64,000 bases of DNA from a bacterium (GTDB taxonomy: Archaea > Nanobdellota > Nanobdellia > Pacearchaeales > GW2011-AR1): contig DAITPU010000001.1 of NCBI GenBank assembly GCA_036833455.1, positions 7,549 through 71,548 of the forward strand, given 5' to 3'. The number at the start of each line of letters is the position of its first letter. Within the stretch, counting starts at the first letter, position 1. Below, piece after piece: positions 13,937-63,454 of this stretch. Both the position numbers and the translations under genes were made by a program. The notes beneath the pieces are model-generated. The model saw only the letters and a program-made list of their open reading frames with translations. It did no database searches and had not been told where the DNA came from.

Positions 13937-15313
13937 TTATTCTCTAGGTTTAGATTGAGCTAAAAAATAAGCCATGTTAGAATCAACTTCTTTAGACTTT
14001 CTATCTTTTTTATAAGTTCCTTTAGTCCTAGGCAAAGCAAATTTACCTAAAACTCCTACTTTAGAATAGATTATATAAGATAAAATCCTCTTTTCTCCAG
14101 GTTCTAGTCTATCAAATTCCCATTCAAAAATCTTACTTCCTTTGTGGAACCTTTTAGGTATTTCTCCTCCAAAATGATTATATACATCAACTAATGGGGG
14201 TAATCTATCTATAATTTTAACATTTTCTAGATGATCGTTAGCTTCTAAGATGATAGAAACTTTCAATCCAAATTCCCCTCCTTTGGCATTAACAAAATTA
14301 ACTTTTTTCTTAATTAAAAGATCTCTTTTAGAATATTTATCTGTTAAATACCAAACCAAAATTAAAAACAATATAACTGCAAAAGGGAGAAACCAGTTTG
14401 TTTTAGTTTTAACTTCTAATTTTTCCCCAGGATTTAATTCTTGAACCCAAGTATAATAAATCTTAGAACCCTGCCTTTCTACAAAATCCGGTTCAATACT
14501 GAATGTAGTAAAAAGTCTAGAAAAGATATTTTTTTTGGCAGTTATTACTGCTGGCAGGGGAATATTTCCCTCATTACTTTTCTCTTGAATTTGAGTCAAG
14601 ATAAAAAAACCATAATTTTGTTCCCGAGTTGAAATTAAACTTTTTTCTTCAAATTCCAATTTACCTTCAAGCTCTACTTCAGAATCTTTAACTTTTAGAA
14701 GAGCATTTATACTATAAAAACCAGCCCCCAAACTACTAAAATCCTTCTTATTTAGCGAAACTTTAACACTCTTTTTTTCAGAAGGACCTAAATCAAAACT
14801 ACCCGAAGTTTTAAAGAAAGCCGAATTAAATTCAAAATCTAAATCGCTAAAATAAAAGTTAACTTTGTTATAGACATAAATATCTGTATATTTAGATTCT
14901 GGATCAATTTTTCCAGCACTTATTTCAAAAGCATCTTCCAAATCAATTATATTCACAATTAACTCTTCTTTAATTTCTTCACCTTTTGAAGATTGAATGT
15001 AATATTCAAAAAGAACGTATTTTCTCAAATGAAGATCTTCTCTAGGATGCAAATAGAAAGTAACTTCTTTTGTTTCCCCCGATTTTATTTTAAAACTCTC
15101 CATAGGAGTTATTCCTCCTGCAAAAAGAGAATAAATATGAAAATTATCTGTTGGCCCATTGTTAGTAATATTAATTTTAAACGTCGCTGGATCTCCCGTA
15201 CCAAGAACCAAAAATTCATTTGAACTAACTTTCTGAACTTCCAAATCAATAGCAGATACTAAAGGAAATAAAATCAAACTAAAAAATAAAATCCCCAAAA
15301 TCACTTTTTTCAT
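13937..15313 (-). CDS. Membrane protein with a signal peptide, an extracellular CARDB/DUF11-like beta domain, one TM helix and a cytoplasmic domain of about 150 aa
   Basis: The N-terminus is hydrophobic. LVLGTGDPATFKINITNNGPTDNF is present. The TM helix FLPFAVILFLILVWYL is at about residue 305. Confidence 0.4.
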   Translation of the reverse strand: MKKVILGILFFSLILFPLVSAIDLEVQKVSSNEFLVLGTGDPATFKINITNNGPTDNFHIYSLFAGGITPMESFKIKSGETKEVTFYLHPREDLHLRKYVLFEYYIQSSKGEEIKEELIVNIIDLEDAFEISAGKIDPESKYTDIYVYNKVNFYFSDLDFEFNSAFFKTSGSFDLGPSEKKSVKVSLNKKDFSSLGAGFYSINALLKVKDSEVELEGKLEFEEKSLISTREQNYGFFILTQIQEKSNEGNIPLPAVITAKKNIFSRLFTTFSIEPDFVERQGSKIYYTWVQELNPGEKLEVKTKTNWFLPFAVILFLILVWYLTDKYSKRDLLIKKKVNFVNAKGGEFGLKVSIILEANDHLENVKIIDRLPPLVDVYNHFGGEIPKRFHKGSKIFEWEFDRLEPGEKRILSYIIYSKVGVLGKFALPRTKGTYKKDRKSKEVDSNMAYFLAQSKPRE

Positions 15314-15951: not shown

Positions 15952-17565
15952 ATGGTGAAAAATAATAATATCCTTTCTGAAAATATGGATCGGCTTTTAG
16001 GAAGAGACGCTCAAAGAAATAACATTTTTGCTGCAAGAATGGTGGCTGAAATAGTAAAAACTACTTTGGGCCCAAAAGGTATGGACAAAATGTTGGTTAC
16101 TCCTACAAACGAAATAATAGTTACAAATGATGGGGTGACCATTTTAGAAGAAATGGAAATTGAACATCCGGCAGCAAAAATGATGGTTGAAGTTGCAAGA
16201 ACCCAAGAAAAAGAAGTGGGAGATGGAACAACTACTTCTGTTATGATTGCTGGAAAATTATTAGAAAACGCAGAAAAACTAATTGATAAAAAAATTCATC
16301 CTACAATTATTTCTAAGGGATATCGAATTGCGGAAAGAAAAGCACAAGAAATCCTCCAAGAAATATCTTTAAAAATTTCCCCAGAAGATTTATCCACACT
16401 AAAGAAAATTGCAATGACCGCAATGACTGGAAAAGGTGCAGAAGATGAAAAAGAAAAATTTTCAGAAATTATAGTTAGCGCAATAAAAACAATTCAAAAT
16501 AAAGGAAAAATAAATATAGAAGACATAAAAATAGAAAAAGTCCTGGGCGATGGAATTAAAGACACAGAATTAATTCAAGGAATAGTTTTAGATAAAGAAA
16601 AAACTTCAAAAGATATGCCCTCTTTAATTGGGAAAGCTAAAATACTTTTAATTGATTTTCCCTTGGAAATCCAAACTCCGGAATTACAAACGAGAATTTC
16701 TATTTCAAGTCATTCAGAACTTCAAAAAATCTTAGGTGAAGAAGAAAATTCTATTAAAAAAATGGTTGAAAAAATATCTGAATCCGAAGCAAATGTTATT
16801 TTTTGTCAAAAAGGAATAGATGATTTTGCAAATTACTTGTTAGCTAAGAGAGGGATTTATACTTGTAGAAGAGTTCCAAAATCAGATATGGAAAAAATCT
16901 CAAAAGCAACTGGCGGAAAAATAATTTCAAACTTAAATGAAATAAATTCTTATGAATTGGGAGAAGCTGAAAACGTAGAAGAGATAAAAAGAGGAAAAGA
17001 GATAATGACTTACATAAAAGGATGCAAGAATCCAAAAGCAGTTACAATACTTATTCACGGAGGAACAAAACACATACTTGATGAAATCGAAAGGGCCTTC
17101 CTTGATGGAATAGGAGATATTGTTTCAACAATAGAAACTGGATTAGTTGTTCCAGGAGGAGGTGCAATAGAAATTGAATTAGGGAAAAGATTAAGAGAAT
17201 TTTCAAACACACTTCAAGGAAGAGAAAGATTAGCCGTAGAAGAATTTGCCAATGCTCTTGAATTTATTCCAACAACTTTAGCAGAAAATGCTGGATTGGA
17301 CCCAATAGATATTTTGACTGAATTGAAAGCAAAACATGAATCAGGAGATAAAAATGCCGGATTAAATCTTTTTACAAATAAAGTGGAAAATGTCTTAAAT
17401 GCAAGAATAATTGAACCTTACAAAATTAAATCCCAAGCCCTAAGTTCAGCAACAGATGTTGCAACAATGATTTTAAGAATAGATGATGTTATTGCGGCAA
17501 AACCTGCCAAAAAAGGAATGATTGATTCTGGAAAAGTTCCTGATTACTTTGGGGGATTGAGTTAA
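15952..17565 (+). CDS. ths: Thermosome subunit (group II chaperonin, Cpn60/TCP-1 family)
   Basis: Contains [24 protein letters not shown] and IEPYKIK. The length is 537 aa. Confidence 0.95.
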
Positions 17566-31206: not shown

Positions 31207-31842
31207 TCACTCAAAAGAGAATTCCATAAAGTAAGGAACTTTTTCAACCTTATCTAAAAACGCACGCATATTTTTTCCTGAACCTTCAAAAACATAATGA
31301 AGAGTTAAAATTTCCTCTTTTTTATTTACCTTTTTATGAAGAAGCCTACGTTTCTTAATTTTAAATTCCTTAAATAAATCGTCCAATTTCTTTTCTTTAT
31401 CTAAACCTTTAATTTTTATTTCCAATCTTTTTTGATAAGAAATTAGCCATCCTTTTTCTAAGAATCGATTAGTCAAGATAGTTAACCAAATCATTCCATA
31501 CAAGATCAGCGCAATTTTTATACTTCCCACACCAACAACCAATCCTAAAATAGCAAAAAGCCAAATTCCGGCTGCAGTTGTAAATCCGAAAATTTTATCC
31601 GTAGTTTTTATCAAAGCTCCAGCACCCAAAAAACCAATACCAGTTACTATCGCTGCCAAAAGCGGAATTGGATTGTCATATCCCAGTCCTATCGCAGTCA
31701 AAGTTAACCCGCAAGAACCAACTGCAACAAAAATAAAGGTTCCAAACCCAACCGGTTTATGAGAAAATTGTCTCTCAAGCCCAAATGCAAAAGATAAAAT
31801 AAAAACTAAAATAAGCCTAAAAAAAACAACTTCAAATTCCAT
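31207..31842 (-). CDS. mgtC: MgtC/SapB-family membrane protein
   Basis: GLERQ...GSCGLTL...TTAAGIWLFAILGLVVGVG matches the MgtC N-terminal membrane domain. Confidence 0.75.
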   Translation of the reverse strand: MEFEVVFFRLILVFILSFAFGLERQFSHKPVGFGTFIFVAVGSCGLTLTAIGLGYDNPIPLLAAIVTGIGFLGAGALIKTTDKIFGFTTAAGIWLFAILGLVVGVGSIKIALILYGMIWLTILTNRFLEKGWLISYQKRLEIKIKGLDKEKKLDDLFKEFKIKKRRLLHKKVNKKEEILTLHYVFEGSGKNMRAFLDKVEKVPYFMEFSFE

Positions 31843-32554: not shown

Positions 32555-33142
32555 ATGGTAGAAGAAAAATTTATGTTAATCTCTATGGACGACGAAAAAA
32601 TAAAATACATTGCAGAAATTTTAGGAAATAAAACTTGTAAAAAAATATTAGATTACCTTTCTGAAAATAATGAAGCAAGTCAGCAAGATTTATCTGAAAA
32701 ACTCAAAATTCCATTAAACACTATAGAATATAATATCAAAAAGTTGATAAAAGCAGAATTAATTCAAAAAAGAAAAAATTTCTTTTGGAGTAAAAAAGGA
32801 AAAAAAATAATCCTATATGAAATTTCTAAAAAATCAATAATTATCTCTCCCAAAAATTCAAATATAAAAAAGAAAATAAATTCAATATTACCAGGAATTT
32901 TTTTAGTTGGTTCATTAAGTTTCTTAATCTGGACTTATGAAAAAATAAAATTTTCCTTAGATCAAACTAGAAATTTAGCATCTGAATCCTTTGAAATAGA
33001 AAGTTTAAAATTAGCATCTACTCCTCAAGATATAATACAAAATTCATTAAATCAATCTCCTCCAACTTTATGGACTTGGTTTTTAGCAGGAGGATTAATT
33101 GCATTATTAATTATTTCTATATTAAATTGGAGAAAGTTATAA
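32555..33142 (+). CDS. ArsR-like winged-helix transcription regulator fused to C-terminal TM helices (membrane-tethered)
   Basis: ILDYLSENNEASQQDLSEKLKIPLNTIEYNIKKLIKAELI is the HTH. Two C-terminal hydrophobic helices follow. Confidence 0.5.
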   Translation: MVEEKFMLISMDDEKIKYIAEILGNKTCKKILDYLSENNEASQQDLSEKLKIPLNTIEYNIKKLIKAELIQKRKNFFWSKKGKKIILYEISKKSIIISPKNSNIKKKINSILPGIFLVGSLSFLIWTYEKIKFSLDQTRNLASESFEIESLKLASTPQDIIQNSLNQSPPTLWTWFLAGGLIALLIISILNWRKL

Positions 33143-51611: not shown

Positions 51612-52493
51612 ATGGAAAAACAAAAAATAGTTCAAGCAGGAGAAATTGCAAAAAAAGCAAAAATATACGCAAAAAATATAATCAAAAAAGACATGCCTCT
51701 TTTAGAAATTGCAAATTTAATTGAAGACAAAATCATAGAATTAGGGGGATTTCCCGCATTTCCTGTAAATCTTTCAATAAATGAAATTGCAGCACATTAC
51801 ACTCCTTCTTACGACGATAAAAATTTAGCAAAAGGTTTACTAAAGGTGGATTTAGGGGTGCATATAGATGGATGGATAGCAGATACTGCATTTACCCTAG
51901 ATTTGGAAAATTCTGAAGAGAATAAAAAATTAATTGAAGCTTCAAAAAAAGCATTAGAAATAGTTGAAAAAAATATTTCCAAAGAGATGCATCTATCAAA
52001 AATAGGAAAATTGGTTTCAGAAACAATAAAAAGTTTAGGATTTAATCCAATTTCTAATTTATCTGGACACTCTTTAGGAGAATATGATTTGCACGAAGGA
52101 ATTTCAATTCCAAATATCGATAATGGATCAAATAAAAAAATAGGAAAAGGCGCATTTGCAATAGAACCTTTTGCTACAAGCGGGATTGGAAGAGTTCACG
52201 ATGGAAAACCTTCTGGAATTTATATTTTAGTAAGCAACAAAAATATTAGAAGCCCCTTAGCAAGGGAAATTTTAAACGTAATTGAAGACAATTTTCAAAC
52301 ACTTCCTTTTGCTTCAAGATGGTTAATTGATGAATTTGGAAATAAAGCGCTTTTAGGATTAAAACAATTAGAACAAAATGGAAATCTTCACCAATTTAAC
52401 CAGTTAATTGAATCCTCGGGAGCAAAAGTATCTCAAGCAGAAAATACTTTTTTAATAGAAGAAGATAAAGTTATCATAACTACAAAGGATTAA
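51612..52493 (+). CDS. map: Methionine aminopeptidase type 2 (archaeal)
   Basis: AHYTP, DLGVHIDGWIADTAFT, GHSL..Y.LHEG. Confidence 0.88.
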   Translation: MEKQKIVQAGEIAKKAKIYAKNIIKKDMPLLEIANLIEDKIIELGGFPAFPVNLSINEIAAHYTPSYDDKNLAKGLLKVDLGVHIDGWIADTAFTLDLENSEENKKLIEASKKALEIVEKNISKEMHLSKIGKLVSETIKSLGFNPISNLSGHSLGEYDLHEGISIPNIDNGSNKKIGKGAFAIEPFATSGIGRVHDGKPSGIYILVSNKNIRSPLAREILNVIEDNFQTLPFASRWLIDEFGNKALLGLKQLEQNGNLHQFNQLIESSGAKVSQAENTFLIEEDKVIITTKD

Positions 52494-53023
52494 AATTCAA
52501 ATTCAGAAAATCTTTCGTCTTCAAAATTAAAAATAGGTATACTTTGACTTTTCTTAGAATTAGGAATATCCAAAAAACTCCAATGATACGGATCTACAAA
52601 ATAAGTTTGATTTTCTTCCGGCACCCAAACTGAATTAGATAAAAAAGGATCATAAATACAAACTCCCTTTTTTTTAGCCAGTTCAAGTTGACTTTTCCTA
52701 GATTCCATCGCAAGATCAAACTCCTCTCCAAATAAATTATCTAAAGATTTAGAACCTAAATCCCTCATAAGTAAAACAGGCATCTTTTTAAAATTCTTAA
52801 AATTAAATAAATCAGAAAGACCTTCATATTTAGGTAACTTTAATCCTCTAGAAATGGCTTCAATAGCCTTGAGATATTCTATTGATAGCATCCTTTTTGA
52901 AGAATCATAATCAAAACCAGGAATTATTTTTCCGGCTAATCCTTGCCCAAAAGAATAAACTTTCCCTAAATTTCCCTTTCCCCTAATTCGAGTTAAAAAA
53001 TTAACATAAAATTTTTTTTGCAT
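52490..53023 (-). CDS. Hypothetical protein, paralog of 53058..53600 (177 aa); Gly-rich loop near the N-terminus
   Basis: YSFGQGLAGKIIPG, ELAKKKGVCIYD and FVDPYHWSF align with the neighbour's YSIGNGLVGKCLKG, EKAKSLGFIPSLD and FLNDFRYW. Confidence 0.4.
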   Translation of the reverse strand: MQKKFYVNFLTRIRGKGNLGKVYSFGQGLAGKIIPGFDYDSSKRMLSIEYLKAIEAISRGLKLPKYEGLSDLFNFKNFKKMPVLLMRDLGSKSLDNLFGEEFDLAMESRKSQLELAKKKGVCIYDPFLSNSVWVPEENQTYFVDPYHWSFLDIPNSKKSQSIPIFNFEDERFSEFEF

Positions 53024-53057
53024 GAATAGAAATTATAACCTGCATTTAAATATTTTT

Positions 53058-53600
53058 TTAAAAAATCATCGGTTTTGGAGGTATTAAACCTAGTTTTTCA
53101 TTTTTCCAATACCTAAAATCATTAAGAAAAACCTTATTTCTCTTAAAAGAAGGATCTATTTTACCATAAATTACATTAGCAAATTCTCCCGAATCAAGAG
53201 AAGGTATAAAACCTAAACTTTTTGCTTTTTCAATTTCCAAACGTGAATCTTCTTCTATTTTCCTTATATCTTTTAAACTCCAATAAAAAGGTTCCAAACT
53301 AAAAATTTTCTGCATAACAAAAGTAGGAAAAAATTCCCCTGTATTTCTCTCCCTAATTAAAAAAACCCCATATGGTTGAGGAACCGAAATTCTTTCTTTA
53401 AATGATTCTTGCGAAACTTTATCTTCATACTTTAAAATCTCTTCAACAGAATCCCCTTTTAACAAAAAATCTTCTCCTTTCAAACACTTTCCAACTAACC
53501 CATTTCCAATTGAATAAATATTTGATTCCATTCCTGAAGAAGAAAGTGGTCTATCATAATGAAACCATAATTTTTCCGGATTAAATTTTAACTTTGCCAT
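53058..53600 (-). CDS. Hypothetical protein, paralog of 52490..53023 (180 aa)
   Basis: See the paralog alignment above. It lies directly downstream of cdc48. Confidence 0.4.
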   Translation of the reverse strand: MAKLKFNPEKLWFHYDRPLSSSGMESNIYSIGNGLVGKCLKGEDFLLKGDSVEEILKYEDKVSQESFKERISVPQPYGVFLIRERNTGEFFPTFVMQKIFSLEPFYWSLKDIRKIEEDSRLEIEKAKSLGFIPSLDSGEFANVIYGKIDPSFKRNKVFLNDFRYWKNEKLGLIPPKPMIF

Positions 53601-53629
53601 AAAAAAATAAAAAAACTCTATTTAAAAAG

Positions 53630-55954
53630 TTATCCCAAATAGCTTCCATTATCTGTAGGAAGTGCAGATTTTGCTTTATTCAAGAAATTTTCTTCGATCT
53701 TTTTATAAAAAGAAATTGATTGTTTAGTAACGCTGGGGCTAACTTTCTTCATCGCTTCTTCAAAATGTTTCTTCTTCACTTCTTTGGATTCTATATCTTC
53801 CCTTAGAGAAACCATTGCCGCTTCACGAACAAGGGCTTCTAAATCCGCACCAGTATATCCCTCTGTTTCTTTCGCAATTAAATCCAAATCAACTCCCTTT
53901 CCTAACGGCATATTTTTTGTGTGAATATTAAGAATATTTTTTCTACCTTCTTCAGTTGGAGCATTCACAAGTAAAATTTTATCAAATCTTCCAGGACGAA
54001 GTAAAGCTGTATCCAACATATCTGGTCTATTTGTTGCAGCTAAAACAAGAACATCATTCATTTGTTCCAATCCATCCATTTCTGCAAGCATTTGATTTAA
54101 AACTCTCTCGGTAACTTTTTGACCATAATCTACTCCTCTTTTTCCGGCTAAAGAATCTATCTCATCAAAGAAAACAATACAAGGAGAAACCTGTCTTGCT
54201 TTTTCAAAAATCTTCCTAACTCCTTCTTCTGATTTTCCAACCCACATGGATAATAAAGAAGGTCCTTTTATTTGAATGAAATTCGCTTCTGCCTCTTTCG
54301 CAACCGCTTTAGCTAACAAAGTTTTACCTGTTCCAGGGGGTCCATACAACAAAATTCCTCTCGAAGGCCTTATTCCCATTCTCTTAAAACTTTCAGGAAA
54401 TTTCATGGGCCATTCAACAGCTTCTTGTAAATCTTGTTTTATTTTATCTAATCCTCCTATATCGCTCCAACCAATATTAGGAGTTTCAACTAAAACTTCC
54501 CTCATTGCAGAAGGCCTAACTGTCTTTAAAGCATCTAAGAAATCTTCTTGTCTTACTACTAATTTTTCCAAAATCTCAGGAGAAATTTTATCATCATCAA
54601 TTTTAATCTTGTTCAAATTTTTTCTTAGTACATTCATGGCCGCTTCCTTTGTTAAAGATTCTAAATCTGCACCAACAAACCCATGAGTTAAACTAGCTAT
54701 TTTTTCCAAATCCACTCCCTTTACCAAAGGCATCCCTCTTGTATGGATTTTCAAAATAGCCAATCTTCCTTTTTTATCTGGAACCCCAATTTCAATTTCT
54801 CTATCGAATCTTCCAGGTCTACGCAAAGCAGGATCAATAGAATTTACTCTATTAGTTGCTCCAATAACTATTACTTTTCCTCTTGCATTCAGTCCATCCA
54901 TCATAGTTAACAATTGGGAAACAACTCTTCTTTCAACTTCTCCTTGAACATCCTCTCTTTTAGGAGCAATAGCGTCAATCTCATCTATAAAAATTATTGC
55001 AGGAGCATTTTTTTCCGCCTCCTCAAAAATTGTTCTAATTTTCTTTTCAGATTCTCCATAAAATTTACTCATTATTTCTGGCCCATTTAACAAAATAAAA
55101 TGTGAATCTGTTTCTGTTGCAACTGCTTTCGCTAACAAAGTTTTACCTGTTCCAGGAGGGCCATGCAACAAAACTCCTTTAGGAGGACTAACTCCTAATT
55201 TGTTAAAGATTTCTGGATGTTTCATAGGAATTTCAACCATTTCTCTAATTTTTTTAATTTCTTCGCTCAATCCTCCAATATCTTCATAATTAATTGTAGG
55301 AATTTTTGAACCAATATCTTCAACTGCTTTTGAATTCAAAATTATTTCAGTATTTTCTGTTATAACAACCGGACCATTTGGATTAGCTGAAACAACTGAA
55401 AATTTTATTTGAGAAATTCCTCCTCCCAAATTTCCAAAACCCATTCCTCCAAAAAGATTCTCTAAATTTCCAAAAATATCCCCAAAATCTCCAAAGTCCT
55501 CACTCATTAAATCTTTCCTTCTTTGAACTCCTCCAAAAACCACCAAATCTCCTTTAATTACTGCTCTTCCTAATAACCCTCTTTTCAAACTTTCAGAATC
55601 TCCTTGAACCATAATTCCTTTCTGAGCTGGAGCAATAGTAATTTTTTTTGCTTCTTTAACTTGAGCTCTTTTGACTTCAACTTCTTCTCCTATTGAAACA
55701 CCTGCATTTCTTCTAAGAATTCCATCCATCCTAATAATTCCCTCTCCAACGTCGGCAGGATAAGACCTATCGGCAATAACAACTGTTTCTCTTGAACCTT
55801 TGATAGAAATAAACTCTCCTCTCTTAACATTAAGCTCTTTCATCAAATCCAAATCAATCCTAGCAATTCCCTTATATGCATCATCCTGTAAAGCTTCGCT
55901 AACTTTCAACTTAACTGACTCTTTGTTATTTTTTTCTTTTTTATTCATCTTCAT
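53630..55954 (-). CDS. cdc48: Cdc48/VCP-like AAA+ ATPase (N domain plus D1 and D2)
   Basis: Two [15 protein letters not shown] Walker A motifs, two DEID Walker B motifs, and an SRH arginine finger in each domain. Confidence 0.93.
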
Positions 55955-56432
55955 TTTCCTCGATTATCTGTTTTTTATTTCTCTCTGGATGGGCCGAATC
56001 AGAAAATTCCCGAGTATGAATTACCGGCTTATTGTTTTTAACAACTTTAATTTCCCTTGCTTTAATAACTCTTGCATTTGAATTTGTATTTTCAGGTGTA
56101 TTGAACATTAAACTTAATCTTCCTGTATTTTCAAACGAAAGACGAACCATGTCGTTTATCATTCTTTCTTGTTCTTTCATAAAATCTACAATCTCTCTCG
56201 GAATTGAAACGGCATAAGAATTTCCAACCATCCTCATTTTAACAGAATATTCTTTTTGTTTAAGCCTCATATAATTCTCATATTCAACTTTATCAACAGG
56301 ATGCAAAGCCAAAGAACCGCAATTTTTACATTTTTTTGCTCTAAGGTTAAAACCATTCTTAGAAATAAGCAAAGGTTCCATTTTTCTATTGCACTTGTTA
56401 CAAAAAGTATTACAATCAAATATATCTGCCAT
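55941..56432 (-). CDS. Zn-ribbon plus SpoVT/AbrB-like swapped-hairpin DNA-binding protein, overlapping the cdc48 start by 14 nt
   Basis: CNTFCNKC...CKNCGS is a C4 ribbon. MVGNSYAVSIPREIVDFMK is an AbrB/MazE-type looped-hinge motif. Acidic C-terminal tail. Confidence 0.5.
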   Translation of the reverse strand: MADIFDCNTFCNKCNRKMEPLLISKNGFNLRAKKCKNCGSLALHPVDKVEYENYMRLKQKEYSVKMRMVGNSYAVSIPREIVDFMKEQERMINDMVRLSFENTGRLSLMFNTPENTNSNARVIKAREIKVVKNNKPVIHTREFSDSAHPERNKKQIIEENEDE

Positions 56433-56658
56433 GTGTATACATAAAAATATACACTATTTAAATCTTACGATTTTAAGCATGAAAAAAATATAAAAACCCC
56501 CAAATTCAATTAGTTAAATGAAAAATAATAAAAGAGGCAATTTTTTTGAAAGGCACATTTATCCTTTACTTTTAATTACAATTTCTGCTATCCTTGTTTC
56601 GTATGTTTTCGCAGCGGAATTTGCAAAAATCTACCTCGAAACAATTAGATAAACACTC

Positions 56659-59600
56659 TTAAATGGAAGAACACAGTTGACCTGCATAACCTGTGTTTGG
56701 ATAACCTACAAAATATCTCATTACTAAAAGAGAATCTGCAGAATTTATTGTTCCATCTCTATTAACATCCAAACAACAAATATTATTTGGAGTTGGAATA
56801 AGTTGAACAAAAACTTTGCTTATTAAAAGTGCATCTGCAGAATTTATTGCTCCATCTGCATTAGCATCTCCTATTAAAGATGAAGAAAAGCATTGTACTT
56901 CTGGGGAAAGTAAAGGATTATTTTTTTCATATTTTCCTGTATGTTGTAAATCATGCATAAACATTGGCCAATCTATCCTTGATTCATTATATAAAACACT
57001 TAAATTCCAAGCATAAATTTTAGTTTTGGGGTAGGAAGCTCCAAGAACTAAATCTAAAAAATCATCTTTATCTAAATCACTAACAATTAATCTATCTGAA
57101 GTTCCAAAAAAATAACCCGAAATTGGAGATTGAATAAAAGAACCAAATCTATCATATATTCCTAAACTAGGTCCAGAAACTATGATTTCTCTATAGTGGT
57201 CTCCATTTATATCTGCTATGATTGGGGAAGAATAACTAAAATCTCCTGTTTGAATTAAAGATTTATTAAAAATTAAATTCCCTTCATAATCAAAAGAATA
57301 AAGTATAAAATAAGGCTGTTGAATCTGTGAAACTAATGTTATTACTTCTAATTTTCCATCTCCACCTAAATCTCCTACTGAAGGACCTGAAGTAATTCCT
57401 CTGATATTTTCTTCAAAAGTATATGGCCACCCTGAAAAAATTGTTCCATTATAATTCCAAACATACAATTTAGAAAAATTTGGATCTGAAAAAATTCTCA
57501 AATCCCCCATAATAATCTCTAATTTTCCATCTCCATCTAAATCTCCTATTGCGGGAGAATTTAAAAAAGCATTTTCCGAATATTGAGGCCATCCATTAGC
57601 AATAGTCCCATTATGATGCCAAACATAAATAATACCATTATAATTTTCAAAAGAAGATGAATAATAGGGGAACCCCATTACAATTTCTGAATTTCCATCT
57701 CCATCTAAATCTCCTATTGCAGGATAGGAAATCTTATCCCACTGCATCATGAAATTTGGTTCTCCTATTTCTTGCGGCCATCCCGAAAGAGAATTACCAT
57801 AAATATCAAAAATATACACTACCTTATCGGTAGTTATAACAAAATCTCTTTTTCCATCATTATTAATATCAGCTAAGGATAAAGAAGAACTAAATTCTTC
57901 AGAATAAATACCAGAAAAATCCCAATAGTTAACAAGAGTTCCGTTATAACTAATAGCATAAATATAAATTCTGCCTAGTCCACTTATCAAAACTAAAACT
58001 TCTTCAATATTATCCCCGTTAATATCTTCTGAAGTCAATAATAAAGGACCATTACCCAAACTAGTATTTATCAAAAATGGCCAACCAGAAAGTGTTTCTC
58101 CTTCATAATTCAACAAATTTATTTGTTGATTTAATGAAGATCCGAAATAAGAATTAAAAAGTATTTCTTTATATCCATCTCTATTTAAATCTACAACAAC
58201 TGGCCAAATTTCACTTCTAATATTTGAATTTCCTTGAAATTCGACTTTTCTAGGCCATCCCTCTTTTAAGGTTAAATCTAAATAAATAGGAAAAGATATA
58301 GAAAAAGAATCAAAAAAACTACTAAAACTGAAAATCAAAAGATAATATCCTTGGTTGAAACCAGAAGTATTCCAAACTGCAAAAGAATCATTCAAAATAT
58401 TTATACCTTGATAAGAATGAGGGGTTGATCCAAAATAAGAAATATTCGAAAGATTATAATACGGATTTAAAATATTCCACTTAAGATTAATTTGATCTCC
58501 AATTCTATAAATTTCTGAAAAATCTGGATTAAGAATTTCTACGTTCTTTATTTTGAAAAATCCAAAATCTTTACTTTGAATAGAATTATTTCCATAAACA
58601 GATAATTTAAGATTATAAATTCCTTCTTTTAAAACATTGGGATCAAAATTAGAGCATAAAACACCTTCATCAACAACATTATTTCCAGAACATATTAAAT
58701 TCCAAGTATTGCTATCAGAAGAATAAAAAACAGAATAAGAATAAAAATCATCTCCTTTTGCACTACCCAAAATATTCATTTGGCCTGATGGAAGATAATC
58801 TATTTCATTTAAAGAAGCTATCAAAGGTTTACTAAAATTTAAAGAAGAACGAACATTTATTCTTCCTTGGCCTTGATCTTTAATTCCAGCTCCATTTAAA
58901 TTCTGTGCAGAATTTTTTAAAACCATTTTAATTTCTTCTGGAGACCAATCTGGATGAGCTTGCTTGATTAAAGCTACTGCTCCTGCAACATGGGGAGTAG
59001 CCATACTTGTTCCGGGAATTGAAGTGTGTTGATTATCAATACATTCTCTATCGCTCCAAGCATCATTCCATTGAGCTGCACAAATTCCTTGAGAACTAAA
59101 AAATCCATCTCCAGGAGCAACAACATCTGGTTTAGATAAGGACTTTATTTTTCCTTGAGCATCTTCCCAAAGAACCGGCCCTCTAGAAGAAAAGGACGCC
59201 ATTAAATCATTCTTATCCGAAGCACCTACACTAATTGCTTTTCTGGAAGTAGCAGGAGAACCTATAGGTCCATTCCAAAGTCCATCATTTCCTACAGCAA
59301 TTACTGCAATTACTCCTGCACTTACAACGTTATCTATAGCTTGACTAACAGGATCATCTGGATTTCCTTGACCTCCCAAACTCAAACTTATAATATCCAC
59401 ATAATCATTTTCATCTTCCAAGGGTATTCCATTGTTATTCAAATCTACTGATCTTTCAATAGCAGAAATAACATCGGAAAAATCTCCCCCTCCTGCCGAA
59501 CTTAAAACTTTAAAACCATATAATTTTGCATCTGGAGCAACACCTTTTAAAATTCCCTTTCCTGCGGCAATAGAAGCACAATGAGTTCCATGCCCATTAT

Positions 59601-60591
59601 CATCCATTGGATCAAAATCATTATTAACAAAATCATAACCTCCTAAAACTTTTTCACACTTGCCTTTTAAAAAACTAGAAGAAGTACATGATCCTAAATC
59701 AGGATGAGTATAATCAATCCCCGTATCAATAATTGCAATTTTTATTCCTTCTCCAGTTAAATTTAAAGAAGAATTATTTGGATCTGAAATTTGCCAAACC
59801 AAATCTGCTTCAACCAAAGAAACAGAATCCATTAAAAAGGCTTTTACTCTATAATTTGGAGTGACTCTTTTAATTCCAGGCATACTTTCAATTTTTTCTT
59901 TTTCTTCTTTTGTTAATTTACCAACACTAACTCCACTAAAAGAAAAATAAAATTCTTCAGAAATAATTTCTCTACTTATAGATTCCTCTTCTAATTTTGC
60001 CTTAAAATTTTCACTTGTTTGTTGTAAAATTTCTCTTTGTTTTTCAAGTTTTACACTTGCCTCTTCTTCCAAGATTTCAGAATCTTTAGAAAAAGTTTTT
60101 AAAATAAATTTAGAAACTCCTTTAGTTTGAGCTTCAGTTTCCTTTTTATAACTTACCTCTTCTTCAAGATCTGATTTTAAAACCAATAAAGGTTTCTCTT
60201 CAAATTCAACAATATATCCTTCGTATTCCCCAATATTTTCTCCCTTATTTATAGGAAAATTCTCATTTTCTCTATCAGATAAAAGAAAATCATTTTGCCC
60301 CAAAAACATATTATCCCTACTTCTATACTGAAAAGAATTAAAATCATTTTCAAAAATATTTGTTTCTTGTTCCTCAAAAAAATTATTATTTGTTAACTTA
60401 TCTTCAACTGAAATTTTTTCTTCATTTTGTTTTTCAAGAGTTTTTGCATTTTTTGCTAAACATTCAAAAAAACTTCCCTTACAATCTTCATCAACTGCTC
60501 TTCCAGTAAAAGAAACCCCAGATAAAAAAATCCCTCCAAAAAAAATTAAAATTAAGAAAAAAGAAGAATAAAGATAAATTTGTCTTTTCAT
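56659..60591 (-). CDS. 1310-aa secreted subtilisin-like (S8) serine protease with a pro-region, FG-GAP/beta-propeller repeats and a C-terminal dockerin
   Basis: Catalytic triad contexts DTGIDYTHPDL, HGTHCASIAAG and GTSMATPHVAGA. Seven or more D.[DN].DG...[ED] FG-GAP loops (DLNRDGYKEILF, ADINNDGKRDFVI, IGDLDGDGNSEIVMG and others). Dockerin: GDANADGAINSADALLISK ... LDVNRDGTINSADSLLVMR. Confidence 0.85.
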   Translation of the reverse strand: MKRQIYLYSSFFLILIFFGGIFLSGVSFTGRAVDEDCKGSFFECLAKNAKTLEKQNEEKISVEDKLTNNNFFEEQETNIFENDFNSFQYRSRDNMFLGQNDFLLSDRENENFPINKGENIGEYEGYIVEFEEKPLLVLKSDLEEEVSYKKETEAQTKGVSKFILKTFSKDSEILEEEASVKLEKQREILQQTSENFKAKLEEESISREIISEEFYFSFSGVSVGKLTKEEKEKIESMPGIKRVTPNYRVKAFLMDSVSLVEADLVWQISDPNNSSLNLTGEGIKIAIIDTGIDYTHPDLGSCTSSSFLKGKCEKVLGGYDFVNNDFDPMDDNGHGTHCASIAAGKGILKGVAPDAKLYGFKVLSSAGGGDFSDVISAIERSVDLNNNGIPLEDENDYVDIISLSLGGQGNPDDPVSQAIDNVVSAGVIAVIAVGNDGLWNGPIGSPATSRKAISVGASDKNDLMASFSSRGPVLWEDAQGKIKSLSKPDVVAPGDGFFSSQGICAAQWNDAWSDRECIDNQHTSIPGTSMATPHVAGAVALIKQAHPDWSPEEIKMVLKNSAQNLNGAGIKDQGQGRINVRSSLNFSKPLIASLNEIDYLPSGQMNILGSAKGDDFYSYSVFYSSDSNTWNLICSGNNVVDEGVLCSNFDPNVLKEGIYNLKLSVYGNNSIQSKDFGFFKIKNVEILNPDFSEIYRIGDQINLKWNILNPYYNLSNISYFGSTPHSYQGINILNDSFAVWNTSGFNQGYYLLIFSFSSFFDSFSISFPIYLDLTLKEGWPRKVEFQGNSNIRSEIWPVVVDLNRDGYKEILFNSYFGSSLNQQINLLNYEGETLSGWPFLINTSLGNGPLLLTSEDINGDNIEEVLVLISGLGRIYIYAISYNGTLVNYWDFSGIYSEEFSSSLSLADINNDGKRDFVITTDKVVYIFDIYGNSLSGWPQEIGEPNFMMQWDKISYPAIGDLDGDGNSEIVMGFPYYSSSFENYNGIIYVWHHNGTIANGWPQYSENAFLNSPAIGDLDGDGKLEIIMGDLRIFSDPNFSKLYVWNYNGTIFSGWPYTFEENIRGITSGPSVGDLGGDGKLEVITLVSQIQQPYFILYSFDYEGNLIFNKSLIQTGDFSYSSPIIADINGDHYREIIVSGPSLGIYDRFGSFIQSPISGYFFGTSDRLIVSDLDKDDFLDLVLGASYPKTKIYAWNLSVLYNESRIDWPMFMHDLQHTGKYEKNNPLLSPEVQCFSSSLIGDANADGAINSADALLISKVFVQLIPTPNNICCLDVNRDGTINSADSLLVMRYFVGYPNTGYAGQLCSSI

Positions 60592-60679: not shown

Positions 60680-61330
60680 ATGAAAAAAAGAGTTGCTGAT
60701 ATAAAAGATAAAAACAAATTTAAGCAATTTCTAAAAAGATTTTGGTTCATTGTATGGAAAGATGAATCTATCAGAGGTTGGATTTTCTCCCTTATTTTTT
60801 TATTTGTAGTTATAAAATTAATTTTTTTTCCCCTGCTCTCCTTAACAACCGGAACAAGTTTGCCTTTGGTTATTGTTGAATCTTGCTCTATGTATCATGA
60901 AGGAAACCTTTTATCAAACTTCGACACTTGGTGGAAAACTCAGGACATGAAATATTTCAAATTTAAATTGACTAAAGAAAATTGGGAAACATTTCCCATG
61001 AAAAAAGGATTCAATAAGGGAGACATCCTATTCATAACTGGTGTTAAACCAGAAAAAATAAAGGTAGGAGACATAATAATTTTTGAAGCTAATTACCGGA
61101 ATCCAATTATCCATAGAGTTATTGAAATAAACCAAAATGGAGAAAGATATACTTTTTCCACGATAGGAGATAATAATGGAGGCCAATTATCTATAGAAAA
61201 AGAAATATCTGAAGATCAAATAGTAGGAAAAGCCCAAGTAAAGTTAGCTCCTTATCTAGGTTGGATTAAATTAATTTTCTTTGAACACCTAAAACCCGAA
61301 TATGAAAGAGGTTTTTGCAAAAAATCCTGA
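60680..61330 (+). CDS. Signal peptidase I (archaeal/Sec11 type, S26B)
   Basis: TM anchor. VIVESCSMYHEG contains the Ser nucleophile box. Also IIHRV and GDNNGGQ. Confidence 0.7.
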   Translation: MKKRVADIKDKNKFKQFLKRFWFIVWKDESIRGWIFSLIFLFVVIKLIFFPLLSLTTGTSLPLVIVESCSMYHEGNLLSNFDTWWKTQDMKYFKFKLTKENWETFPMKKGFNKGDILFITGVKPEKIKVGDIIIFEANYRNPIIHRVIEINQNGERYTFSTIGDNNGGQLSIEKEISEDQIVGKAQVKLAPYLGWIKLIFFEHLKPEYERGFCKKS

Positions 61331-61377
61331 ATTTCTAAATCCATAAAATATATAAAAGAGATTAATCTAAAAATAGG

Positions 61378-61686
61378 ATGGAATTTTGCCCAAAATGTGG
61401 TTCGGTTCTAATGCTTAAAGTTAAGAATAGTTCTTGCCCAAGATGCGGTTATACTAAGAAAGGGAAGCTAGAAATGTCCACGAAAGAGAAGATAAATGAA
61501 AAAAAAGAAATCCCGGTTATAAAGAAAGACATGGGTTCAACAGCTCCCGTAGTTAATGAAAAATGTTCTGAATGCGGGCACGAAAAAGCTTATTTCTGGA
61601 CTGTTCAAACAAGAGCATCAGATGAATCTGAAACAAAATTCTACAAATGTGTTAAGTGCGGTAGAACAAAAAGAGATTACAATTAA
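61378..61686 (+). CDS. tfs: Transcription factor S (TFIIS-type cleavage factor, RpoM paralog)
   Basis: N-terminal ribbon CPKCGS...CPRCGY. C-terminal TFIIS ribbon CSECGH...QTRASDE...CVKCG with the acidic hairpin. Confidence 0.88.
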   Translation: MEFCPKCGSVLMLKVKNSSCPRCGYTKKGKLEMSTKEKINEKKEIPVIKKDMGSTAPVVNEKCSECGHEKAYFWTVQTRASDESETKFYKCVKCGRTKRDYN

Positions 61687-61742
61687 TTCTTAAAAAATGG
61701 CCAAAAGAAAAGTATTAAAAAGAATTACCGAATTAAATATTT

Positions 61743-62228
61743 ATGTTTGGAGATTCACTTTTTAATCGCTGCATAAATCTGATAAAAATTTGGAAACCGA
61801 AACAGAGATATAATGAAGAATTAAACTATCGTGACGATTTAAGAGATTTTTTATTTGTGGAACTAAATAAACAAAATTTCTTTTCTTTTGGACAATCCGA
61901 AAAAATAAATGTAAAAATAGAATCAAGCCGTTCTCTTTGCGATATTGCAATTGGAAGAGCAATTGGGATAGAATTAAAATTCAGTAAAAACGGAAAGATA
62001 AAAAAAGCAGAAATAGATAGATTATATGGTCAAATTGCCGGACACAAAAAAGAATATTCTCAAGGAATAATTCTTGTTTTAGTGGGAGATGTGGATGACT
62101 ATTCAGAAGCGGAAATTAGAGATAAATTAAAGGAATTAAATAGTTCTTTTAATGTTAATAGTTTAGGATTAAACAGATTTTATTTGGGTTTAGTCAATAA
62201 ATCTAATAAAAAACAAAACGTATCTTAA
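61743..62228 (+). CDS. Hypothetical protein (161 aa) with a possible PD-(D/E)xK-like motif
   Basis: CDIAIG...IGIELKF is a D..(n)..ExK pattern only. Confidence 0.25.
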   Translation: MFGDSLFNRCINLIKIWKPKQRYNEELNYRDDLRDFLFVELNKQNFFSFGQSEKINVKIESSRSLCDIAIGRAIGIELKFSKNGKIKKAEIDRLYGQIAGHKKEYSQGIILVLVGDVDDYSEAEIRDKLKELNSSFNVNSLGLNRFYLGLVNKSNKKQNVS

Positions 62229-62281
62229 AACCAAGAATTCTCTTTCAGAAGAATCTTCTTCATTTATCTTTTTCATTTGAA

Positions 62282-62356
62282 TGGCCCCGACGGGAGTTGA
62301 ACCCGCGACACCTGGATTAAGAGTCCAGTGCTCTAACCAGACTGAGCTACGGAGCC
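62282..62356 (-). tRNA. tRNA-Lys (anticodon CUU)
   Basis: Cloverleaf reads GGCTCCG-TA-GCTC-AGTCTGGTTA-GAGC-A-CTGGA-CTCTTAA-TCCAG-GTGTC-GCGGG-TTCAACT-CCCGT-CGGGGCC-A. Confidence 0.88.
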
Positions 62357-62460
62357 ATATGAAAATTAGTTTATATCTATTTAAAAAAGTTTAGAAATTT
62401 TCTAAATTATAAAAACTTCTAGAGTTTTCCATTCAGAGTTCGGTAGCGATCACCTCTACC

Positions 62461-62727
62461 TCACTTTACAAGAGACTGTATGTTTTCTATTGCATTCGCA
62501 ACTTCTTGACCTTTCTTTGTAAGTTTGATTAATTTTATTCTTCCTTTTTTATCAAACTCAACAAGGTTTAAAGCCTCTAAAGTCTGCAGTATTTTTACTG
62601 CATGGCTATAAGTGCAGTCCACTTCTTTAGCCAAAACACTACCATACCTCATCCGCGAATTCTTCTTCAAAGAAACCAACATCAAAGCGGGTTTTCTTCG
62701 GAAGAAGACATCAAAATTGTCTTCCAT
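62461..62727 (-). CDS. Small winged-helix transcription regulator (88 aa)
   Basis: RYGSVLAKEVDCTYSHAVKILQTLEALNLVEF is an HTH plus wing. Confidence 0.5.
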   Translation of the reverse strand: MEDNFDVFFRRKPALMLVSLKKNSRMRYGSVLAKEVDCTYSHAVKILQTLEALNLVEFDKKGRIKLIKLTKKGQEVANAIENIQSLVK

Positions 62728-62863
62728 TGGATTTGATATGTGTTATTTAATGTATATGTTATGAACATTGTTTCTTTTTAAATATTTTGAAAACCTCATG
62801 TTCAAATAACTGGTGACAAAAAAAGAACAAAAAACTTATTAACGTTCTTCTCTAACAAAAAAT

Positions 62864-63454
62864 ATGAAAATTCTTGCAATTTCAGACATACATGGTGATA
62901 CGGGATTAGTAAAAAAGATAGAAAAGATAGCCAAAAAAGAAAAAGTAGATTTAATAATTGTAGCGGGAGATCACACTTGGTTTAGTCAAAAAGAAGAAAA
63001 GTTAGTAAGCCCAATTGCAAAAAAACCCACATTAATGATTCACGGAAATCACGAAACTGAATCTTTAATAAAGAAATGGGAACAAATGTATCCTCGATTA
63101 AAAAATTTACATGCAAAACATTTTGAAAAAGAAGGCATAGGTTTTTTTGGATCGGGAACTACAGATTGGGGAGTAAAAAAAGATTCCGAAGCAGTATTTA
63201 AAGAATTAGAAAAAGCCCATAAACCAATAAAACATTTAGAGAAAAAAATAATGGTTTCACACTGCCCTCCTGAAGGAAGCGCTATAGAACTTTTAGGTTT
63301 TCCTGGATCCTATGGAGTTAGAAAAGCCATAAAAAAATTTAAACCAACCGTAGTAATCTGCGGCCATATTCACGAAGGTGCGGGTATTTTAGAAGAAATA
63401 GACGGAGCAAAAGTTATGAATGTTTCAAGAACTCCAACAATTTTTGAAATTTAA
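62864..63454 (+). CDS. Calcineurin-like metallophosphoesterase
   Basis: DIHGD, GDH, GNHE and GHIHEG motifs. Confidence 0.8.
   Translation: MKILAISDIHGDTGLVKKIEKIAKKEKVDLIIVAGDHTWFSQKEEKLVSPIAKKPTLMIHGNHETESLIKKWEQMYPRLKNLHAKHFEKEGIGFFGSGTTDWGVKKDSEAVFKELEKAHKPIKHLEKKIMVSHCPPEGSAIELLGFPGSYGVRKAIKKFKPTVVICGHIHEGAGILEEIDGAKVMNVSRTPTIFEI

Follow-up and report, generated by a model that had tools for sequence, protein, structure and literature searches.

Several minimal variants of the protein kinase fold have been described. Among them are the secreted bacterial virulence factors NleH, OspG and HopBF1 and, on the archaeal side, the RIO and Bud32/PRPK kinases, which are universal in archaea; all of these keep the helices that follow the DFG motif. 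The eukaryotic cofactors of the AAA+ unfoldase Cdc48 include Ufd1, with a double-psi barrel, and Npl4, with zinc fingers. To our knowledge no Cdc48 cofactor is established in archaea, and none turned up in the literature, where we also found nothing relevant on a link between Cdc48 and AbrB, on Cdc48 in DPANN archaea, on archaeal minimal kinases or on Zn-ribbon cofactors of Cdc48. Here we analysed a 64,000-nt stretch of a Pacearchaeales genome (GW2011-AR1; contig DAITPU010000001.1, positions 7,549 to 71,548; hereafter the window), which is ~29% GC and whose genes have homologs labelled Pacearchaeota, Nanoarchaeota or Woesearchaeota. In the window a cdc48 gene is preceded by a gene for a Zn-ribbon/AbrB-like protein and followed, on the same strand, by two small paralogous genes, B and A, and the initial annotation had read all four as one Cdc48 operon. 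Given the demonstrated fold, the conservation of ATP/Mg-binding and catalytic residues, the truncation after the DFG motif, the promoter signals at the level of motifs and the synteny statistics, we consider it likely that A and B belong to a family of minimal protein-kinase-like (PKL) proteins that is unannotated, evolves fast and is nearly confined to DPANN archaea, and that they have promoters of their own and no obligate place in a cdc48 operon. What is conserved in linkage with Cdc48 is the upstream Zn-ribbon/AbrB gene, not the paralogs.

Paralog A (177 aa; 52490–53023, minus strand) and paralog B (180 aa; 53058–53600, minus strand) have no match in Pfam (E ≤ 1) or NCBIfam. With A and B as queries, word-indexed homology searches recovered nothing but the queries themselves, so an exhaustive profile search was required. 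A HMMER search with a profile of A and B recovered 98 clusters of small proteins (120–250 aa) at E ≤ 1e-3; A and B, with this many homologous clusters, are real genes. Family members are 141–250 aa long (median 171), each paralog also matches the relatives of the other, and paralog B is recognized by the family hidden Markov model (HMM) with E = 1e-45. Where a source name is given for a member, its annotation reads 'hypothetical protein'. All labelled family loci come from DPANN archaea except two (L011 and L020), which belong to metagenome-assembled genomes labelled 'uncultured Methanosarcinales' (GC 38%); these could represent either a mis-binned symbiont contig or true presence in a potential host lineage. 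The alignments used below comprise 97 sequences for the consensus, 137 for the active-site counts and 93 proteins for tail length. The sample of genomic contexts was drawn with a profile of a 12-sequence subset, which finds only members with [KR][VI]YLIDFxxW and is hence biased to that subgroup. A profile built from A and B alone was also compared with the PDB, where its match to PAP phosphatase (E = 0.3) was rejected as a chance hit.

A and B are paralogous at about the 25% identity given by the initial annotation (BLASTP E = 3e-6, 23% identity over 123 residues; 24% in a MAFFT alignment). Their nearest relatives differ (P0126 and P0180 for A, P0123 and P0125 for B; ~35–40% identity), and the duplication is therefore old, as had been proposed. 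The further statement that the two were kept as a pair did not hold: the A and B pair occurs in this organism only, and A-like and B-like genes stand together in no other sampled lineage. Tandem copies of family members recur in other loci (L008, L009, L021 and L028/L029).

The family has the N-lobe ATP site, the catalytic and DFG residues and the fold by which the PKL superfamily is recognized. When the family profile was compared with PDB sequences, we found the eukaryotic-type kinase CK2alpha (E = 1.5e-8), which resembles the family across subdomains I–VII. The alignment runs from the G-loop through the DFG motif and is in register at the G-loop, Lys, Glu, hinge, HRD-Asp/Asn (HRDxxxxN) and DWG. 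Single members match several kinase families of Pfam, namely APH (34/97, best E 9.5e-9), RIO1 (30/97, best E 1.4e-4), Kdo (11), ABC1 (8), Pkinase (6, best E 4.5e-4), Choline_kinase (6) and OspG_kinase. The AlphaFold2 (AF2) model of paralog A is confident (pLDDT 87.6, pTM 0.81) apart from a low-confidence C-terminal tail of 33 residues. A Foldseek search of the PDB with this model gave 384 matches at E ≤ 1e-3, and the 50 listed are all protein kinases (query-normalised TM 0.48–0.59), including Rio2 (1zar, 1tqi), PRPK/Bud32 (7szb) and NleH1. Matches in a viral structure library are mainly kinases as well. Thus, the earlier guess of a minimal kinase-like lobe is borne out by profile, Pfam and fold evidence, whereas its alternative, an ATP-grasp lobe, finds no counterpart among the Pfam, PDB-sequence or listed fold matches. 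The family matches a well-known superfamily that the initial annotation had already named, rather than a well-characterised unrelated one.

A and B do not qualify as members of the ePK (eukaryotic-type protein kinase), RIO, Bud32 or APH/CAK families. They have no Pfam match to PF00069, and the C-lobe subdomains VIII–XI are absent; neither matches RIO (PF01163), a domain of ~250 aa with its own N-terminal helix and flexible loop, although their relatives match RIO1 weakly. For Bud32/PRPK, no Kae1-like neighbor was seen in the loci examined, the C-lobe is again absent, and PRPK is one among many fold matches. For APH and choline kinases (CAK; PF01636), A and B are unmatched, and the family has neither the Brenner His of HxDxxxxN nor the C-terminal subdomain.

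The shared motifs noted earlier are present in both proteins (VYSFGQGLAGK / IYSIGNGLVGK and FVDPYHW / FLNDFRYW). However, the segment YS[FI]G.GL.GK, formerly taken for a Gly-rich loop, corresponds to beta2–beta3 with the ATP-binding Lys, and the G-loop proper is found shortly before it, as GKGNLGKVY in A and in a degenerate form, SSSGMESNIY, in B. The family consensus reads G.xG.VY ... K ... E ... GISVPKP.G ... P.FVME.I.G ... LGF.P.D.....N ... KVYLIDF..W. Positions K32, E49, N130 and D144 (paralog A numbering) are near-invariant in the 97-sequence alignment, and D125 is likewise in a smaller one. Among 137 sequences the beta3 Lys is conserved in 93%, the alphaC Glu in 92%, the catalytic Asp in 88%, the Asn in 96% and the DFG Asp in 95%. 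Paralog A combines K32, E49, D125, N130 and D144 with a canonical G-loop (G15-K-G17-N-L-G20); paralog B keeps all five residues (K38, E59, D136, N142 and D161). Judged by these alignments, the family retains all residues for Mg-ATP binding and phosphate transfer.

Beyond the DFG Asp the proteins end almost at once. The core from the G-loop to the DFG motif spans ~135 residues, and the tail after the DFG Asp has a median length of 10 aa (interquartile range 8–14, 93 proteins). The model of paralog A consists of five N-lobe strands (beta1–beta5), alphaC, one long C-lobe helix (alphaE) and two short strands that carry the catalytic and DFG residues. It contains no activation segment and no alphaF–alphaI; the sole helix after the DFG motif is short, of low confidence and at the extreme C-terminus (170–174). 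By model and alignment, these are predicted to be 'subdomains I–VII only' kinases. We do not claim the smallest kinase known, since predicted kinase-domain proteins of 160–180 aa exist in giant-virus proteomes.

The catalytic loop of the family lacks the HRD His and Arg and the Lys that Ser/Thr kinases have at D+2; ahead of the catalytic Asp the consensus is G-F-x-P-x-D, with no His. Such a loop is compatible with a small-molecule kinase of the APH/CAK type, with for instance a metabolite, antibiotic or lipid head-group as substrate, and APH is also the Pfam family matched by most members, with six members matching Choline_kinase in addition. However, the C-terminal helical subdomain that forms the APH/CAK substrate pocket is missing, as is Brenner's His. 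The best PDB profile match is a eukaryotic-type protein kinase (ePK), CK2, and one family locus pairs the mini-kinases with an FHA domain. We therefore regard a small-molecule kinase as improbable. The locus in question (L009:5019-8411) holds, on one strand, an FHA gene, two tandem mini-kinases and a HerA/DUF87-like ATPase gene; no further FHA neighbor was found among the family loci. FHA domains read phosphothreonine, and this neighbor is therefore a hint of protein substrates.

We next consider the arrangement around cdc48. The four genes (52490–56432) are tightly spaced on the minus strand according to the open reading frame (ORF) list, as initially annotated. The Cdc48/VAT protein itself (774 aa; 53630–55954, minus strand) matches TIGR01243 with 1051.5 bits (cutoff 802.65) and contains CDC48_N (E = 1.2e-26), CDC48_2 and two AAA modules. 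The stop of the Zn-ribbon/AbrB gene overlaps the cdc48 start by the 14 nt given earlier (8 nt if the second ATG is the Cdc48 start), but the gaps put at 30–35 nt measure 29 nt between cdc48 and B and 34 nt between B and A. On the other side, the stop of paralog A overlaps by 4 nt with the convergent gene for methionine aminopeptidase (MetAP, family M24; 51612–52493, plus strand; Peptidase_M24 match), a flank that bounds a variable slot and lies outside the unit.

The motif TTTA[AT]AT starts at –26 to –32 from the ATG in 12 of the 49 window genes, against ~0.5 expected (background 0.0015 per nt), with a peak at –29. Such a positional peak is a signature of archaeal TATA boxes that drive leaderless mRNAs, and suggests that such transcripts are common across this genome. 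In six genes the motif stands exactly 29 nt before the ATG (e.g. 13937–15313, 15952–17565, 31207–31842 and 32555–33142). At the locus, a TATA-like box, TTTAAATA (56455–56462, minus strand), begins 30 nt upstream of the Zn-ribbon/AbrB ATG and is the putative promoter of a leaderless bicistronic transcript of this gene and cdc48. For cdc48 we found no TATA-like box upstream; instead, a GAGGA Shine-Dalgarno-like element lies inside the preceding gene. The spacer between cdc48 and B (53601–53629, minus strand) contains, at 53619–53626, a second copy of TTTAAATA, which begins at –26 from the ATG of B and is its putative promoter by position, and then a T7-A-T7 run (53601–53615), a putative oligo-T terminator-like signal for cdc48. 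Similarly, the spacer between B and A (53024–53057, minus strand) carries TTTAAAT at 53044–53050, beginning at –27 from the ATG of A and putatively serving as the promoter of that gene. Orthologous mini-kinases in four other loci (L048, L042, L022 and L018) are also preceded by TATA-like boxes. From this pattern the likely transcription units are [Zn-ribbon/AbrB-cdc48], [B] and [A]; A and B thus appear to be transcribed as leaderless mRNAs from their own TATA boxes, apart from cdc48.

Comparison across the family gives a similar picture. Roughly a quarter of the family loci with enough flanking sequence have cdc48 upstream (window, L003, L042, L018, which equals L040/L041, and L048/L049), and about three quarters have no cdc48 within 6 kb. 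The initial annotation had asked whether the gene order is conserved in relatives. The layout of cdc48, mini-kinase and convergent MetAP does recur in five lineages (window, L003, L042, L018 and L048) and hence is not unique to this organism, but most family members are found elsewhere. In an all-against-all clustering of neighbors (38 loci), MetAP (6 lineages, with L052 as a further case) and Cdc48 (5) are the most recurrent, and both are minorities; L022 and L052 show a convergent MetAP without cdc48. Other family loci adjoin genes for aIF5B (three loci), enolase, GyrB, a Rad50/SMC-like protein, TldD, L10e and aIF5A. Conversely, four relatives (L044, L045, L046 and L050) keep the Zn-ribbon/AbrB-cdc48 ... 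MetAP block with the slot filled by unrelated genes, which showed no membership in the family even with the HMMER filters off. B-like genes keep the slot position in L003, L048 and L022, and the relatives of A are found elsewhere (L047, L051 and L052).

The sequences also diverge at very different rates. Between the window and the same genomes, identity is 66–80% for Cdc48, 66–69% for PolB, 56–71% for the Zn-ribbon/AbrB protein and 47–66% for MetAP, but 31–37% for the mini-kinase. A protein at 31–37% beside a Cdc48 at 66–80% does not follow the pattern to be expected of a stoichiometric partner.

A single four-gene cdc48 operon, with the paralogs as adaptors or regulators of the unfoldase, e.g. 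as kinases that phosphorylate Cdc48 or its substrates, would account for the common strand, for the gaps of 29–34 nt and for the mini-kinase directly downstream of cdc48 in five lineages, including L018, whose Cdc48 is only 49% identical to that of the window. The place of cdc48 among the commonest neighbors of the family also agrees with it, and HopBF1, which targets HSP90, offers a precedent for a chaperone-targeting minimal kinase (PMC9950578). Nevertheless, we find such an operon unlikely. TATA-like boxes stand at leaderless distance before both paralogs, a T-run lies behind the cdc48 stop, the family lies mostly away from cdc48, unrelated genes occupy the slot in four relatives with the same block, and the mini-kinases evolve much faster than Cdc48. 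Because the convergent MetAP is an equally or more constant neighbor, inherited gene order fits better than functional coupling. Accordingly, the recurrent placement looks like gene order inherited within one clade around a variable slot, with no obligatory functional module, and the notion of co-transcribed adaptors is weak.

Several neighbors of the mini-kinases are worth recording. In L052 (500-2608) a Peptidase_C13 (legumain-like) gene stands between the A relative P0180 and the convergent MetAP, and in L051 (605-1652) the A relative P0127 is followed by aIF5A. A conserved protein of 79–80 aa (MNL..R...E..IK.LL...) is encoded between the B-like mini-kinase and MetAP in L003 (10273-10515) and L048 (1155-1394); paralog A occupies its place in the window. 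The 219-aa gene after cdc48 in L003 was considered as a further paralog and rejected (12% identity, no HMM match, faint DUF3419). Some relatives carry two Cdc48 paralogs in tandem (L044:7847-10525 and L041:1-3577). In L044 the first Cdc48 is separated from the second by a 126-aa gene that reads as similar to small heat-shock proteins and then a HIT-family gene; in L041 it is the second Cdc48 paralog that precedes the mini-kinase.

Degenerate pseudokinases or RIO/Bud32-like ATP-binding switches, with an ATPase or scaffold role in complexes of translation or the ribosome, would suit the RIO1 matches, the presence of Rio2 and PRPK among the fold matches, the frequent translation-related neighbors (aIF5B in three loci, L10e, aIF5A, MetAP), the degenerate G-loop of B and the loss of alphaF and the substrate-binding lobe, but are very unlikely given that the catalytic Asp, dispensable for scaffolds, is kept in 88% of members and all five positions in 88–96%, that the family is fast-evolving and often duplicated whereas RIO and Bud32 are single-copy and slow, and that no Kae1 adjacency was seen in the loci examined.

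If A and B are minimal PKL proteins of this family, they would act as Mg-ATP phosphotransferases. ATP would sit beneath the G-loop against the hinge P-x-F-V-M-E/R, with its alpha and beta phosphates positioned by the pair of beta3 Lys and alphaC Glu. Mg2+ would be bound by the Asn together with the DFG Asp, and the catalytic-loop Asp would act as base on the hydroxyl of the substrate. That substrate would probably be a protein Ser/Thr, for which the FHA neighbor in the single locus described above is the sole hint. Since the substrate-binding C-lobe is missing, a partner protein or dimerisation is probably needed for substrate recognition or to complete the hydrophobic core.

A number of points weigh against this interpretation. 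The degenerate G-loop of B may point to weak catalysis or to a pseudokinase, and a kinase core that lacks alphaF may be unstable or inactive alone. The promoter calls reflect motif position in a genome of 29% GC, where read-through from cdc48 into B and A is possible. cdc48 and MetAP are the commonest neighbors of the family (5–7 of ~38 loci), and a functional tie to Cdc48 is thus possible. The AbrB assignment of the upstream protein is putative, being sub-threshold in Pfam and accompanied by a poor AF2 monomer model. Finally, whatever goes past the fold and motif conservation, including activity, substrate and partner, we infer.

The gene upstream of cdc48 (163 aa; 55941–56432, minus strand) encodes an N-terminal Zn ribbon, a SpoVT/AbrB-like part and, at the C-terminus, a conserved beta module. 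Its homologs number at least 764, of which the best 120 listed are 59–76% identical. Among 39 homologs the N-terminal DIFD and three of the cysteines (C11, C14 and C35) never vary, and the fourth, C38, hardly does; the motif VKMRMVGNSYAVSIPREIVDF is likewise invariant or nearly so, and the C-terminal module is conserved. The Zn ribbon called by the initial annotation is confirmed by two CxxC knuckles, by a model with pLDDT ~87 over residues 11–60 and by Foldseek, which matches the Zn ribbon alone to Rpb9/TFIIS-like folds (rmsd 1.1–1.4 A, probability 0.99, though at E > 0.1). The AbrB-like part is plausible but stays below threshold. PF04014 (MazE_antitoxin, SpoVT/AbrB) scores 18.3 bits against the 24.7 required, with a sub-threshold match in 39/39 homologs; TIGR02609 matches with E = 1e-4, and hhalign gives a probability of 12% against an approximate E. 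coli MazE sequence. The AF2 monomer of the whole protein is poor (pLDDT 70, pTM 0.34), and the AbrB barrel is not formed in it. The SpoVT/AbrB fold is an obligate dimer.

We found the Zn-ribbon/AbrB gene directly upstream of cdc48 in 8/8 loci, mostly overlapping it or within 2 nt, and its rate of evolution (56–71% identity) resembles that of housekeeping genes. As the gene is usually coupled to cdc48 in translation and evolves slowly, its product is a candidate partner, cofactor or autoregulator of Cdc48. The Cdc48 N domain contains a Gly/Phe/Asp-rich insertion of ~40 aa (residues ~153–197; window ~55364–55498, minus strand). This insertion is present in all seven Zn-ribbon/AbrB-linked Cdc48s examined, is absent from the second Cdc48 paralog (L044b, L018) and may be a docking site. 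An evolutionary relationship links the AbrB barrel to the double-psi barrel in the N domain of Cdc48/VAT (Coles et al. 2005, 2006, cited in PMC4739770). Neither the Zn-ribbon/AbrB protein nor A or B gave a Pfam, NCBIfam or PDB match to a known family of Cdc48 cofactors (UBX, SHP, VIM/VBM, Ufd1/Npl4).

Directly upstream of the cluster lies a gene for a 1310-aa protein (56659–60591, minus strand) with a subtilase domain (Peptidase_S8), FG-GAP repeats and a C-terminal dockerin, probably a protease that is secreted or exposed on the surface. This organism carries the gene here, whereas L003 does not have it at the corresponding position. Further upstream, a block of genes (window 60680–63454; L003:1-5041; L046; L050) is syntenic across several relatives. 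It comprises a function-unassigned gene of ~213 aa, a 102-aa TFIIS-type Zn-ribbon protein, an 88-aa winged helix-turn-helix-like protein and a Metallophos phosphoesterase of ~196 aa. The entire neighborhood is therefore positionally conserved, beyond the cdc48 region.

A bolder combination can be entertained, tentatively and with considerable doubt, in which the mini-kinases are active 'half-plus' kinases that complete their C-lobe in trans and the Zn-ribbon/AbrB protein is a true archaeal Cdc48 cofactor. The trans partner could be a homo- or heterodimer or a client protein, and a dimer would fit since independent tandem duplications recur. The cofactor, in turn, could dock on the Gly/Phe-rich insertion of the linked Cdc48s. 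If the 'half-plus' kinase is real, it would rank with the most compact protein-kinase architectures that function, and would serve as a natural experiment on the requirements of a kinase core. Activity of the mini-kinases would in any case provide a test of the minimal kinase fold for phosphotransfer, and would add a fast-evolving component of signalling or host interaction to very small symbiont genomes. The wider question on the Cdc48 side is how archaeal Cdc48/VAT chooses its substrates. Here the Zn-ribbon/AbrB protein is a better candidate than the paralogs, and its gene is the more promising lead.

Compared with known systems, the Zn-ribbon/AbrB protein shares with SpoVT/AbrB proteins of the MazE/VapB type the motif V-G-N-S-x-A-V-x-I-P-x-E and the beta-beta-alpha-beta-beta order. 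Unlike them, it reaches no gathering score in any match and combines the domain with a Zn ribbon at the N-terminus and a conserved beta module at the C-terminus. It also differs from SpoVT/AbrB antitoxins in having no adjacent toxin gene and in its 56–71% identity, far above that of typical antitoxins. Its likeness to the Cdc48 cofactors Ufd1-Npl4, UBX and VIM/SHP is conceptual only, that of a small barrel-plus-zinc-finger protein genetically coupled to Cdc48; neither its sequence nor its fold matched a known cofactor family.

The mini-kinases resemble RIO and Bud32/PRPK in being archaeal PKL proteins without a classical activation loop and in several motifs (GxGxxG...K...E, D-x4-5-N, D-F/x and 'gv.vP.P' after alphaC). 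However, RIO and Bud32 are proteins of 200–300 aa, slowly evolving, usually single-copy and with alphaF and later helices kept, whereas the family is multi-copy, tandem-duplicating and fast, and its matches to RIO/Bud32 are all below Pfam thresholds. From eukaryotic-type kinases it differs in the absence of HRD and of subdomains VIII–XI (APE, the alphaF Asp and alphaG–alphaI). NleH1/2, OspG and HopBF1 are alike in their single-domain kinase fold, similar size, intact catalytic residues and lack of an activation loop, and NleH1 (4lrj_A, 160 residues) is the listed PDB match most fully covered by the paralog A model (TMt 0.55). Those kinases are secreted bacterial virulence factors with C-lobe helices beyond the DFG motif, whereas the family is archaeal, stops ~10 residues past the DFG Asp, lies in no context of secretion and resembles them only marginally in sequence; OspG_kinase (PF22303) is matched by 3/97 relatives (best E 7e-5), in an archaeal context. 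Overall, the paralogs are a truncated PKL form outside ePK, RIO, Bud32 and APH/CAK, and closest in spirit to NleH, OspG and HopBF1.

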